Shown in pieces: positions 6,999 to 48,857 of a stretch of 52,999 bases of DNA. Every line of letters begins with the position of its first letter. The first letter of the stretch is position 1. The stretch covers positions 1-52,999 of the forward strand of contig JAISJU010000091.1 of assembly GCA_031261165.1 (NCBI GenBank), given 5' to 3'. Made by a program: the position numbers and the translations under genes. The notes below the pieces were generated by a model that searched no databases, was not told the origin of the DNA, and worked only from the letters and a program-made list of their open reading frames with translations. Source of the DNA: Prevotellaceae bacterium. Lineage in GTDB: Bacteria > Bacteroidota > Bacteroidia > Bacteroidales > Paludibacteraceae.

Positions 6999-7103
6999 TG
7001 TCATTGCGGGCTTGACCCGCAACCCCCTGAAAAAAAGGGGATTCTGACTTTCGTCAGAATGACAGGATTGAAAAGGGGATTGCGGGTCAAGCCCGCAATG
7101 ACA
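6999..7103. repeat. Family B palindromic element (arms TGTCATTGCGGGCTTGACCCGCAA(T/C)CCCC)
   Basis: The left arm is 6999-7027 and the right arm is 7075-7103. An inner hairpin is ttctgactttcgtcagaa. Confidence 0.9.
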
Positions 7104-14168: not shown

Positions 14169-14201
14169 TCCTTTCCCTTTGCTGTCATTGCGGGTTGACA
14201 A

Positions 14202-15116
14202 TTATAACACCGCCCCCAACCATTTCCGCGCCTCTTTCTCGGAAATCCCTTTTCTTCGGGCGTAATCCGCCAACTGGTCTTCGCCTATCTCGCCAATCAT
14301 AAAGTAACTTGCCGCAGGGTGGGCAAACAGCAATCCGCAAGCGGAGGCAGTAGGATACATTGAGCCGTTTTCGGTGATTTTGATGCCTGTTTTGTCAAAG
14401 CCTAATATTTTATCCAACTGAAAAATAACGGACTGGTCGGGCAAAGAGGGATAGCCCACTGCAGGGCGGATACCCTGATATTCGCCTTTGAAAAGTTGCT
14501 CGACAGTCAAATTCTCGGCGGGCGCGTAGCCCCAATGTGTTTTGCGGATTTGCTCGTGCAGCCATTCGGAAGTTGCCTCTGCCAAACGGTCGGCAAGGGT
14601 TTGCGCCAAGAGTGCGCGGTAAGTATCGCCCTCAAATTTCTCGCGCAGTTCATCGCTGCCCGCCACCGATACGGCAAAAATGCCGACATAATCGCCTTTT
14701 GGCGAAACAAAATCTGCCAAAGAAAGAAAATGTCCGTTCTCGTTTCGTTGCTGCTGCCGCAACATCGGGATATAAACCGGCTCATTTTCGGCATCAAAAA
14801 CAATGCCTTCGTTTTCCGATTTGGCGGGCAGAATTTGAAAAACGGCTTTTATGGAAAATGATTTTTCGCTTTCGGCAAGCAAGCGTTGTGCATCGCGAAA
14901 AAGATGAAGTGCCTCGCGGGCTTTTTCGCGCTTGTCCTGCTTTTGCAGCCAAGCCGCCTCGCACGCCTCGCAAAGACAGACTTTTTCAATGCCCTCGTAT
15001 CGCCCTGCGACTTTCCACGCTTTGAAAAAGTATGTCCAATTGATGTAACGCGCTATGGCGAAGACGTCAATGTTATTTAATAATGTAAGATTTTTGTTTT
15101 TGGGCGGATAAATCAT
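14202..15116 (-). CDS. Stand-alone methionine synthase (MetH) AdoMet-binding/reactivation domain protein
   Basis: It aligns by eye with the E. coli MetH C-terminal domain: ...WTYFFKAWKVAGRY..., ADRLAEATSEWLHEQIRKTHWGYAPAENL, YQGIRPAVGYPSLPDQ, QLADYARRKGISEKEARKWL. Confidence 0.85.
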   Translation of the reverse strand: MIYPPKNKNLTLLNNIDVFAIARYINWTYFFKAWKVAGRYEGIEKVCLCEACEAAWLQKQDKREKAREALHLFRDAQRLLAESEKSFSIKAVFQILPAKSENEGIVFDAENEPVYIPMLRQQQRNENGHFLSLADFVSPKGDYVGIFAVSVAGSDELREKFEGDTYRALLAQTLADRLAEATSEWLHEQIRKTHWGYAPAENLTVEQLFKGEYQGIRPAVGYPSLPDQSVIFQLDKILGFDKTGIKITENGSMYPTASACGLLFAHPAASYFMIGEIGEDQLADYARRKGISEKEARKWLGAVL

Positions 15117-31220: not shown

Positions 31221-31293
31221 CACGGGAGGTAAGACTCGAACTCACGACACCCGGTTTTGGAGACCGGTGCTCTACCAACTGAGCTACACCCGT
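31221..31293 (-). tRNA. tRNA-Trp (anticodon CCA)
   Basis: Hand-folded cloverleaf: acceptor ACGGGTG/CTCCCGT (one U-U mismatch), D-arm GCTCAGTTGGTAGAGC, anticodon arm CCGGT-CTCCAAA-ACCGG, T-arm GTGAG-TTCGAGT-CTTAC. It occupies the canonical position before secE. Confidence 0.9.
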
Positions 31294-33767: not shown

Positions 33768-33839
<72 letters not shown>

Positions 33840-33910
33840 AATTTCAGACACAAGACACAAGATTATTAGACATAAGACTTGTTGTTGTACTCTGTTTTTT
33901 CTTTCTTTTG

Positions 33911-33983
33911 AGCGGAAAACGGGGCTCGAACCCGCGACCCTCAGCTTGGGAAGCTGATGCTCTGCCAACTGAGCTACTTCCGC
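33911..33983 (-). tRNA. tRNA-Gly (anticodon CCC by my reading)
   Basis: Hand-folded: acceptor GCGGAAG/TTTCCGC, D-arm GCTCAGTTGGCAGAGC, anticodon arm TCAGC-TTCCCAA-GCTGA, T-arm GCGGG-TTCGAGC-CCCGT. Confidence 0.8.
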
Positions 33984-33994
33984 AAGAAAATATG

Positions 33995-34068
33995 AGCCTC
34001 CAGAGGGATTCGAACCCACGACCCCGAGATTACAAATCACGTGCTCTGGCCAACTGAGCTATGGAGGC
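33995..34068 (-). tRNA. tRNA-Thr (anticodon TGT)
   Basis: Hand-folded: acceptor GCCTCCA/TGGAGGC, D-arm GCTCAGTTGGCCAGAGC, anticodon loop TTTGTAA (one mismatch in the stem), T-arm GTGGG-TTCGAAT-CCCTC. Confidence 0.8.
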
Positions 34069-35848: not shown

Positions 35849-35900
35849 GGGGATTGCGGGTCATACTTCGACTATGCTCAGTAAGCAGCCCGCAATAACA
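35849..35900. repeat. Family B single arm with an expanded loop
   Basis: ggggattgcgggtca-tacttcgactatgctcagtaagca-gcccgcaataaca. Confidence 0.75.
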
Positions 35901-45456: not shown

Positions 45457-45567
45457 CTTTGTATGTGTAGGGATTATGGCTTATCAGCAAAGGGGAAAGG
45501 AAATGTATTTTTAGCATTTTTTTTCGTGGTTGCAAGCGAGCCAAATTTATCCACTTCAAATTTTCTG

Positions 45568-46997: not shown

Positions 46998-47423
46998 TTA
47001 TTTATTCTTCAAAATATCCCGAATTTCGGTCAATAAAACCTCTTCTTTCGAGGGTGCAGGCGGTGCGGCAGGTGTTTCGTTTTCTTGTTTTTCCATTCGT
47101 TTTTTCAGCGTATTAATGCCTTTCACAAAAAGAAAAATGCAGAATGCCACAATGATAAAATCGAAAGTTACCTGCAAAAAGTTGCCATAGTTGAGCGTAA
47201 CCGCCGCTTGTTCCACGCCATCAACCACGCGGGCATCGCGCATCACAAACTTCAAATCCGTGAAATTCACACCACCGACCAGCAAACCGATGGGCGGCAT
47301 AATCACGTCTGCCACGAATGACGACACAATTTTGCCGAACGCGCCGCCGATAATCACACCGACAGCCATATCAATTACGTTGCCTTTCACGGCAAATTCT
47401 TTGAACTCTTTTATAAAACTCAT
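46998..47423 (-). CDS. mscL: Large-conductance mechanosensitive channel
   Basis: [46 protein letters not shown]... Confidence 0.95.
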
Positions 47424-47556: not shown

Positions 47557-47685
47557 ATGAAAACAGCAAAAATCATAGTGGTAGCAGCCCTTGCGGTGCT
47601 GTTGAGCGCGTGCAGCACCTCGAAAGGTTGCGGTTGCCTTTCTATGGAAACGGCAGTAAAAGCAGTTATTGAACTTGTAAAATAA
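47557..47685 (+). CDS. Micro-lipoprotein, 42 aa (MKTAKIIVVAALAVLLSACSTSKGCGCLSMETAVKAVIELVK)
   Basis: It is below the ORF-track cut-off. It has a signal peptide and lipobox (LLSAC). A TAATTTTG box lies 21 nt upstream. A paralogous copy follows. Confidence 0.55.
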   Translation: MKTAKIIVVAALAVLLSACSTSKGCGCLSMETAVKAVIELVK

Positions 47686-47689
47686 ACAA

Positions 47690-47718
47690 GGGGATTGCGG
47701 GTCAAGCCCGCAATGACA
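47690..47718. repeat. Family B single arm (GGGGATTGCGGGTCAAGCCCGCAATGACA)
   Basis: It is identical to the left arm of the miaA copy. It starts 5 nt after the stop of micro-lipoprotein 1. Confidence 0.9.
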
Positions 47719-47738
47719 CCCATAATTAAATGTATAAG

Positions 47739-47861
47739 ATGAAAAAAATGAAATGGTTGGCGGTGGCTTTTGTCTGCATTCTGCTGCTCGGCTCGTGCAA
47801 AACGCAACACAAACCGGGCTGTCTTTCACTGAATGCGATAGTGGAAATGGTCAAAAGATAG
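47739..47861 (+). CDS. Micro-lipoprotein paralogue, 40 aa (MKKMKWLAVAFVCILLLGSCKTQHKPGCLSLNAIVEMVKR)
   Basis: It has the same architecture as 47557-47685: a lipobox (LLGSC), then K-x-GC-LS-x-x-x-x-V-x-x-V-K. Confidence 0.5.
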   Translation: MKKMKWLAVAFVCILLLGSCKTQHKPGCLSLNAIVEMVKR

Positions 47862-47866
47862 CAATA

Positions 47867-47895
47867 GGGGATTGCGGGGCAAACCCACAATGACA
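47867..47895. repeat. Family B single arm, diverged
   Basis: ggggattgcggggcaaacccacaatgaca. It lies between the micro-lipoprotein 2 stop and the miaA ATG. Confidence 0.85.
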
Positions 47896-47897
47896 GT

Positions 47898-48857
47898 ATG
47901 AAGAATGACTTAGTTACCATACTCGGCGTTACGGCGTGCGGGAAAACTGCTTTTGCCACCACGCTTGCCTGCGAACTCGGCGGGGAAATTATCAGTGCCG
48001 ATTCGCGACAGGTGTATCGCCGAATGGACATCGGCACGGGTAAAGATTTGTCGGATTACACCGTGAATGGGCGGAAAATCCCCTGTCATTTGATTGATAT
48101 TGCCGAGGCGGGCGAGAAATATAATCTTTTTGAGTACAAACGCGATTTTTTCCGCGCTTACGAAACGATAAAATCCAAGGGCTATTTGCCGATTTTATGC
48201 GGCGGCACAGGGCTTTATATTGAGGCTGTGCTGAATAACTACGACCTGCCCGATGTGCCGCAAAACCCTGAACTGCGCGAAAATCTGGCGCAAAAATCCT
48301 TATCCGAACTCACGGAAATACTGAAAACCTACAAAACGCTGCACAATAAAACCGATGTGGATACGGCGCAACGGGCTATTCGGGCTATTGAGATTGCGGA
48401 ATTTCAAGCGAATGCAGGGGGATTGCGGGTCAAGCCCGCAATGACAAACCCCACCTGTCATTGCGGGCTTGACCCGCAATCCCCATTGAACAGCGTAATC
48501 CTCGGTTTGGACATTTCCCGCGAAGACCGCCGAAAACGCATTTCCGAAAGGCTGCAACAACGCCTGCAAGCGGGAATGATTGACGAAGTGCACGACATTC
48601 TGCAAAGCGGCGTAGCGGCAGAAGATTTGATTTACTACGGACTTGAATATAAATATGTAACAAATTATATTCTCGGAAAACTGACTTATGAAGAAATGTT
48701 TTCGCAACTCGAAATTGCCATACACCAGTTTGCCAAACGGCAAATGACGTGGTTTCGCGGTATGGAACGGCGCGGTTTCCACATTCACTGGATTGATGCG
48801 CTGCTGCCGATGGCGGAAAAAGTGGAAATCGCAAAAGAAAAAATATACCCTAAATAG
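47898..48857 (+). CDS. miaA: tRNA dimethylallyltransferase carrying an in-frame palindromic-element insertion
   Basis: The P-loop is in ILGVTACGKTAFATTLA, followed by EIISADSRQVYRRMDIGTGK. Codons 174-196 (GGLRVKPAMTNPTCHCGLDPQSP) are encoded by a 68-bp repeat. Confidence 0.92.
   Translation: MKNDLVTILGVTACGKTAFATTLACELGGEIISADSRQVYRRMDIGTGKDLSDYTVNGRKIPCHLIDIAEAGEKYNLFEYKRDFFRAYETIKSKGYLPILCGGTGLYIEAVLNNYDLPDVPQNPELRENLAQKSLSELTEILKTYKTLHNKTDVDTAQRAIRAIEIAEFQANAGGLRVKPAMTNPTCHCGLDPQSPLNSVILGLDISREDRRKRISERLQQRLQAGMIDEVHDILQSGVAAEDLIYYGLEYKYVTNYILGKLTYEEMFSQLEIAIHQFAKRQMTWFRGMERRGFHIHWIDALLPMAEKVEIAKEKIYPK
48417..48484. repeat. Family B full palindrome (two perfect 29-bp arms) inside the miaA coding sequence
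   Basis: 48417-48445 (ggggattgcgggtcaagcccgcaatgaca) has a reverse complement equal to 48456-48484. The miaA reading frame is maintained across it. Confidence 0.92.

Follow-up and report, generated by a model that had tools for sequence, protein, structure and literature searches.

How does a palindromic repeat that is scattered between genes come to lie inside the reading frame of a conserved tRNA-modifying enzyme, and does it do anything there? The locus that raises this question is miaA, the gene for tRNA dimethylallyltransferase, on a 52,999-nt stretch of DNA from a Prevotellaceae bacterium (contig JAISJU010000091.1; referred to below as the window), in which two inverted arms interrupt the otherwise conserved MiaA sequence. 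Our analysis indicates that this element is, with good probability, a dimer of inverted copies of a repetitive extragenic palindromic (REP) unit bearing a 4-nt CGTC or TGTC tag, carried in-frame as a tolerated passenger in a loop of MiaA.

The palindrome in miaA and its repeat family

In terms of architecture, a repeat search resolves the element into two 29-nt arms that are 100% complementary and lie 9 nt apart (Table 1); the right arm, TGTCATTGCGGGCTTGACCCGCAATCCCC, is the exact reverse complement of the left. The first-pass annotation had described a perfect palindrome of 68 bp. The full complementarity of the arms stands, but the core measures 67 bp, the left arm is shifted by 1 nt, and the 9-nt spacer is not self-complementary, so that the perfect palindrome is limited to the arms. 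Each arm is a unit composed of an unpaired 4-nt tag (TGTC), an 8-bp stem (ATTGCGGG/CCCGCAAT) that starts with AT, a 5-nt loop (CTTGA/TCAAG), and a short C-rich tail, CCC(C). In miaA the two tags face each other, an arrangement that the nomenclature of Di Nocera et al. terms a “TT” dimer, as opposed to “HH” dimers with the tags outside. The dimer folds into a 29-bp perfect helix, with a calculated energy of -64.5 kcal/mol as RNA (z = -11.6) and -41.7 as DNA. A permissive Rfam scan of positions 48350–48550 gave no match, returning sub-threshold generic miRNA-hairpin models only.

This unit corresponds to a published superfamily of CGTC-tagged REPs (Di Nocera, De Gregorio & Rocco, 2013, BMC Genomics 14:522; PMC3733652), in which a CGTC tag (variants TGTC and CCTC) accompanies an 8–9 bp stem with A-T pairs at positions 1–2, a 4–5 nt loop, and a 3-nt tail of consensus CCA. 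The tag, the 8-bp stem with its AT start, the 5-nt loop, the dispersal in many copies, and the predominance of HH dimers all agree with that definition. The closest family is CGTC-2 (8-bp stem, 5-nt loop), an assignment to a numbered family by architecture only. Stem and loop also resemble the CGTC-3 repeats of Rhodopseudomonas, and the peptides encoded by those repeats, VIAGLDPAIH...DARVKPAHD (PMC3733652, Additional file 3), are akin to the CHCGLDPQSP and GLRVKPAMT encoded here.

The dispersed nature of the repeat, proposed on first reading, is confirmed by a search for the 29-mer with up to 3 mismatches, which finds 6 copies in the 53-kb window, the two miaA arms among them, and 0 in 100 shuffles; the further copy at 35849–35900 is a large-loop variant. 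With both miaA arms included, the 53 kb hold 8 full or variant units. Beyond the window, a genome scan (one genome per species) gave at least 119 loci (L009–L127) with a 22-nt core pattern, many of which share the 26-mer GATTGCGGGTCAAGCCCGCAATGAC without change, across phyla. The hosts comprise many Bacteroidales, including Ca. Symbiothrix and metagenome-assembled genomes whose names suggest termite guts, together with Endomicrobium, Eggerthellaceae, Oscillospiraceae, Defluviitaleaceae, Sulfurovum, and cultured beta-proteobacteria such as Ramlibacter and Caenimonas. Many units in these other genomes end in ...AATGACG, corresponding to CGTC when the tag strand is read. The tail likewise varies, being CCC(C) in the window and CTC or CCT in other Bacteroidales, while most beta-proteobacterial copies are preceded by “tgg”, that is, CCA. 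The 39 dimers in the fetched genome loci divide into 30 HH, 7 tandem (HT), and 2 TT.

The 23 codons contributed by the element are placed between the RAIRAIEIAEF and ILGLDISREDRRKRI blocks of MiaA, as the first-pass annotation had it, within an intact 319-aa open reading frame (ORF). Only frame 3 of the dimer is open on each strand, frames 1 and 2 running into TGA on both; with a single open frame available, the in-frame state is what purifying selection on miaA would leave. A single unit is more permissive, being stop-free in four of its six frames. At least nine other Bacteroidales-type loci carry the unit in-frame, each using one open frame (at least 10 loci with miaA), and all four open frames are represented among them. 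Pfam domains lie on both sides of the unit, or a match spans it, in a PfkB kinase, a GH43-GH16 protein, a UDP-glucose dehydrogenase, an ABC-transporter component, a ketoacyl synthase (two units), a 4Fe-4S protein, and Lhr. In a protein with a type IX secretion system C-terminal sorting domain, a dimer falls within the Por_Secre_tail match, and in a U32 peptidase the unit follows the last domain match, so that a domain is present on one side only. The two units of the ketoacyl-ACP synthase-like gene (L075, 4453–5727, minus strand) are separate: RRLRVKPAMT (around residue 251) lies between the N- and C-terminal ketoacyl synthase domains, and CHCGLDPQSP (around residue 392) lies just before the SNSFGFGG motif. 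A candidate third unit in this protein, RHCGLDPQTP near residue 92, went undetected at the DNA level and was set aside as probably native sequence.

MiaA proteins with and without the insert

The peptide encoded by the element had been predicted to be foreign to MiaA, and an alignment of 73 MiaA sequences (64–88% identity) bears this out. In 66 of them there is no REP-like insert, and an ordinary loop of 28–40 residues, e.g. IEIEEYYKTKAPDTNEYNPINSLIIG, is present; REP-derived sequence occupies the loop in only six relatives, P0002–P0006 and P0008. These relatives do not all carry the same insert (Table 1). The units of the L005 dimer, for example, read GGGCAGGG-CTTGC-CCCTGCCC and GGGCGGGG-GTAAG-CCCCGCCC. 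All inserts are nevertheless placed after Q-x-N-x-[A/S], most of the native loop of about 13 codons is gone in each, and L002, L004, L005, and L006 have a common left junction, “(N)CG CGT”, despite their different REP bodies. In a neighbor-joining tree the insert-bearing clade is monophyletic except for P0008 (L004), the placement of which is ambiguous; it groups weakly with insert-free sequences, and identities by segment are ambiguous as well. The annotated L001 protein (429–1493; P0002, 354 aa) has a 35-residue N-terminal extension that reads through the second of two small upstream ORFs in another frame. Its start is probably mis-called, and the true start would align with the ATG of the window gene.

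The window gene matches Pfam IPPT with E = 1.5e-57 and MiaA chains in the PDB with E values down to 3.6e-39. The protein retains every invariant column of the 73-sequence alignment, including R159 and R162, which we take, from our own alignment with the E. coli sequence, to correspond to R167 and R170 of E. coli MiaA. Those two E. coli residues have been named as tRNA-binding (PMC8234997). Outside the insert, the ratio of nonsynonymous to synonymous substitution rates (dN/dS) is 0.11–0.14 against the six relatives for which it is computable; saturation of synonymous sites precludes such a ratio for L007, which has no insert. The comparison with L001 gives dN/dS = 0.14 at dS = 0.43, and L001 shares the insert; purifying selection therefore continued after the insertion. 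By these measures the insert-bearing miaA looks like a functional gene and not a pseudogene, in keeping with the first-pass reading. The same reading had labeled the gene essential, a label that does not suit miaA, which is not known to be essential in model bacteria.

The location of the insert in the protein was examined in an AlphaFold2 model of the window MiaA (predicted local distance difference test score, pLDDT, of 83; predicted template modeling score of 0.81). Residues 173–198 of the model form a coil between helix 157–172 and strand 199–205, linking the final helix of the insertion domain with the core β-strand that follows, and pLDDT is below 50 for residues 175–192. The rest of the model fits the E. 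coli MiaA-tRNA structures 3FOZ and 2ZM5 best (template modeling scores of 0.73–0.77). Modeling thus places the peptide in a loop, and the 23 encoded residues probably constitute an exposed, disordered loop. Other Bacteroidales lineages have an unrelated loop at the insert site that is 12 residues longer, and loop length is therefore tolerated at this position.

Origin and maintenance of the dimer

The explanation that we favor is one in which two inverted copies of a small, non-autonomous REP, joined as a dimer, would have entered a length-variable connector of MiaA through transposition or recombination. Copies that landed, or were rearranged, in the sole open frame would have left MiaA intact and would have survived purifying selection, with the 23 encoded residues remaining as a passenger peptide in an exposed loop. 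Movement of the family close to this gene is recent. The orthologous sites of L001 (88% nt identity) lack the two single units that lie just upstream of miaA in the window, and so do L002, L005, and L006, in which miaA abuts the small ORFs before it; these units are therefore recent gains. In the two filled/empty pairs (window 47690–47718 and 47867–47895 versus L001 376–430 and 505–565) the window is longer by inserts of about 45 and 40 nt. Each empty site of L001 reads AAATAA|TG (a stop/start overlap), though the contexts of the two are paralogous, and no target motif was established from the two pairs.

Several observations weigh against this explanation in its simplest form. The TT arrangement is rare, and the 2 such dimers among the 39 examined are both the miaA ones, in the window and in L001. 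The native loop of about 13 codons found in insert-free relatives is largely missing, so that the event would be an insertion together with the loss of about 9 native codons, not a simple insertion. No transposase was identified, although no screen aimed at Y1 (RAYT) transposases was made among the window ORFs, and neither of the two filled/empty pairs between the window and L001 shows a clean target-site duplication; “insertion” accordingly rests on comparison and not on a demonstrated mechanism. Finally, the arms of the window and L001 are identical at 58 of 58 positions, whereas identity over the remainder of the gene is 88% and the proportion of synonymous differences (pS) is 0.33. If the arms evolved like their surroundings, the chance of such identity would be about 6e-4 to 1e-10, and purely neutral passenger behavior does not predict it. 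The perfect arms could be explained by gene conversion from other copies or by selection on the hairpin.

The second of these possibilities leads to a different view, in which the hairpin has acquired a function, be it RNA-level control of miaA through RNase III-type cleavage or a translational pause, or a DNA-level signal. Such a function would explain active maintenance of the sequence, and it would be consistent with the stability of the 29-bp helix, with arms that are unchanged between window and L001 at dS = 0.43 while 2 of 9 spacer positions differ, and with the L004 dimer, which keeps both 21-nt cores perfect despite a dS of about 1.6. However, the units of L002, L006, and L003 are decaying through mismatched stems, which argues against a universal constraint, and the unit is identical at unrelated loci across phyla, which points to homogenization or recent spread of the whole family and not to a role specific to miaA. 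The scan of the locus against Rfam, with its generic and sub-threshold hits, adds nothing in favor of a known RNA. We consider an acquired function decidedly unlikely. A chimeric or fold-back join made during assembly has also to be considered, since inverted repeats can in general come from assembly or amplification chimeras. Such an artefact is scarcely credible here and was rejected because the L001 contig, independently assembled and recorded under a JGI sample, carries the same dimer at the same codon with flanks of 88% nt identity and 2 changes in the spacer; in addition, neither the reading frame nor the gene is disturbed on either side.

If the favored explanation of a tolerated REP dimer is adopted, the history of the loop can be told in two ways. 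A single insertion of a REP, or of a small array, in the common ancestor of the insert-bearing clade may have been rearranged in place, with units duplicated, deleted, or replaced, to yield the TT dimer of the window and L001, the remnant of L003, the HH dimers of L002, L004, and L006, and the HH dimer of another REP type in L005. The identical position of all variants, the loss of most of the native loop, the left junction common to four loci whose REP bodies differ, the monophyly of the clade apart from the ambiguous P0008, and the composition of L003, which joins the left junction of L002 to the right junction of the window, are all consistent with this notion. Set against it are the weak grouping of P0008 with insert-free sequences and the perfect arms, which are hard to keep without conversion in lineages with saturated synonymous divergence; we regard a single ancestral event as a serious possibility that falls a little short of probable. 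Alternatively, the loop may be a hot spot: REP units or dimers would have landed there on several separate occasions, and a pre-existing tag or AATG-like motif may attract new copies. Independent hits would account for arrangements and REP types that differ among close relatives (P0004 versus P0005/P0006, with N- and C-terminal flanks of 84–90% amino acid identity), for arms that are intact despite deep divergence, and for the two recent gains of single units, which are confined to the window lineage and lie no more than 750 bp upstream. Yet neither a TT dimer with the window spacer nor an HH dimer with the L002/L004 spacer occurs at any other locus examined, no target motif emerges from the two filled/empty pairs, and a single event is the simpler account of the native loop having been lost in all variants, so that repeated hits are conceivable but rather doubtful.

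The notion that the miaA TT dimer is itself a mobile unit was discarded, as none of the 56 TT loci in a metagenome scan has the spacer AACCCCACC. The 17–20-nt spacer of the L002/L004 HH dimer was likewise found at no other locus examined, and with neither spacer recurring, neither dimer looks like a mobile one. As a separate observation, TT dimers with conserved spacers do form families, with a 20-nt spacer, GCACTGACGACCnnTTTTCC, or a 16-nt spacer, AGCTGCCCCCTTTGCC, in L136–L163 and others (contigs of JGI20163J15578), plus L144, L149, and L170. Their sequences suggest that conserved-spacer TT families are REPIN-like mobile dimers in some communities. HH dimers of the unit that keep a conserved spacer likewise occur in metagenomes.

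At one codon position of miaA, then, the lineages differ: some have a TT dimer and others HH dimers, one has a lone unit in decay, and one has an HH dimer of another REP type. Of the 7, 4 share the “CG CGT” junction, and in some lineages the arms have remained perfect well past the synonymous expectation. That this connector loop is a site of ongoing REP turnover in the Bacteroidales clade concerned seems unlikely to us. If it were so, through tag-targeted replacement or insertion or through selection on the hairpin, miaA would reveal the way in which orphan CGTC REPs move and would indicate that REP hairpins can be maintained inside coding sequence; the neighboring filled and empty sites of the window and L001 add to this.

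Related repeats, neighboring features, and implications

Among known systems, REPINs, the REP doublets that are said to be mobilized by RAYT transposases (reportedly the work of Bertels & Rainey in 2011 and Nunvar et al. in 2010), are similar in that two inverted REP units make one long hairpin and form dispersed, multi-copy families. The unit described here has a (C/T)GTC tag in place of the GTAG tag of REPINs, and REPINs are linked to a RAYT gene whereas, according to PMC3733652, CGTC repeats are without a dedicated transposase. Miniature inverted-repeat transposable elements, which derive from DDE transposons, have terminal inverted repeats and a target-site duplication; the stretches of about 45 and 40 nt that distinguish the window from L001 show no clean duplication. 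The Rickettsia palindromic elements (RPE), reportedly introduced by Ogata et al. in 2000, had been invoked as an analogy in the first-pass annotation; RPE-1 is much longer than the present unit, at more than 100 bp. In both systems a palindromic repeat resides in-frame in conserved protein genes and adds a surface peptide, predicted in the case of MiaA, to a host gene that stays functional. The likeness drawn here is one of behavior, not of membership, and RPE hosts are obligate intracellular alphaproteobacteria whereas the hosts here are Bacteroidales-like, as judged from MiaA similarity. The dRS3 repeats of Neisseria form large intergenic clusters and are a target of phage and IS110 elements, an association that was not seen here. 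The dRS3 sequence has the same GTCATT...AATCC flanks around a short GC-rich stem-loop, but its stem is different and its loop is 4 nt. RPE-4 and RPE-6 have been re-classified as CGTC-4 and CGTC-1, and dRS3 as CGTC-1 (PMC3733652), so that the Rickettsia analogy holds at the level of a superfamily into which the miaA unit fits.

Members of this superfamily have been described from five phyla including Bacteroidetes, for which only Gramella forsetii is listed; their copies are dispersed and mostly intergenic, their dimers mostly have the tags outside with TT rare, no dedicated or adjacent transposase is reported, and intragenic single units and dimers encoding 20–30 aa are already tabulated (PMC3733652). 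The kind of event and the superfamily are therefore already published, and the earlier statement that such in-frame colonization was undescribed holds only for the hosts and the site: the hosts are Bacteroidales, miaA is not among the listed target genes, and the miaA dimer is TT where typical CGTC dimers are HH. We found no report of CGTC-type REPs inside Bacteroidales genes or inside miaA. A full-text literature search for four REP-encoded peptides gave no match, a literature search on Bacteroidales or termite palindromic in-frame repeats gave nothing relevant, and the RepRanger paper of 2025 makes no mention of intragenic Bacteroidota REPs.

The remaining copies of the unit in the window are listed in Table 1 with other features. 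Directly upstream of miaA lie two paralogous lipoprotein-like ORFs of about 42 aa, each with a signal peptide, the lipobox LLSAC, and a conserved C terminus, VVELVK. L002, L005, and L006 have both in their retrieved upstream sequences, and the aligned sequences of L001 and L008 show one apiece. The gene for an MscL-type mechanosensitive channel just upstream of these ORFs is also a neighbor in L006, and synteny is thus conserved. A whole-window Rfam scan at the gathering threshold returned tRNAs and a SAM-II riboswitch only.

Table 1. Location of the miaA element, other repeat copies, and further features in the window, with the inserts found at the same loop in related loci
Feature	Location	Strand	Remarks
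miaA coding sequence, tRNA dimethylallyltransferase	47898–48857	+	319 aa, insert-bearing; ORF list; Pfam IPPT
Left REP unit	48418–48446	-	plus strand reads GGGGATTGCGGGTCAAGCCCGCAATGACA; TGTC tag on minus strand; encodes GLRVKPAMT
Spacer	48447–48455	.	AACCCCACC; not palindromic; encodes N-P-T
Right REP unit	48456–48484	+	TGTC-ATTGCGGG-CTTGA-CCCGCAAT-CCCC; encodes CHCGLDPQSP
23 element-derived codons	48417–48485	+	residues G174–P196, peptide GGLRVKPAMTNPTCHCGLDPQSP
Intergenic HH dimer (tags outside)	6999–7103	.	units 6999–7027 and 7075–7103, 47-nt spacer
Variant hairpin within HH spacer	7037–7064		same flanks, another stem: GGGGATT-CTGAC-TTTC-GTCAG-AATGACA
Half unit	14183–14201	+	minus strand reads ...CAACCCGCAATGACA; directly after stop codon of gene 14202–15116 (minus strand)
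Variant unit	35849–35900	-	same flanks and stem, 26-nt loop; no overlapping ORF of at least 80 aa
Single REP unit	47690–47718	-	between two small lipoprotein-like ORFs
Single REP unit, 3 mismatches	47867–47895	-	ends 2 nt before miaA ATG
Small lipoprotein-like ORFs	47557–47685 and 47730–47861	+	paralogous
MscL-type mechanosensitive channel gene	46998–47423	-	
SAM-II riboswitch, long-loop variant	45501–45560	-	RF01726; 57.4 bits vs gathering score 44
Cluster of three tRNA genes	33768–34068	-	
Fourth tRNA gene	31221–31293	-	about 2.5 kb from the cluster
Insert in L001 (P0002)			88% nt identity; same tags-inside dimer; arms identical, 2 changes in 9-nt spacer
Insert in L002 and L004 (L004 = P0008)			opposite order, tags outside (HH); 17–20-nt spacer
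Insert in L006			L002/L004 arrangement; left unit degenerate
Insert in L003			one decayed unit
Insert in L005 (miaA of P0004)	L005 1166–1333		tags-outside dimer, different REP type; GC-only stems

Protein-coding palindromic repeats have been known mainly from Rickettsia, a few proteobacteria, and Opitutus terrae, and the copies described here extend them to Bacteroidales. For annotation, and for work on protein families, this calls for caution: GLRVKPAMT, CHCGLDPQSP, VIAGLTRNP, IAGQARND, and similar peptides derive from the repeat and are not homologous domains. The filled and empty sites, together with several arrangements at one codon, provide material on the mobilization and the uniformity of CGTC-type REPs. 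No transposase is known for these repeats. The repeat turnover at a single site and the conservation of the arms beyond neutral expectation lend the miaA locus a modest extra interest.

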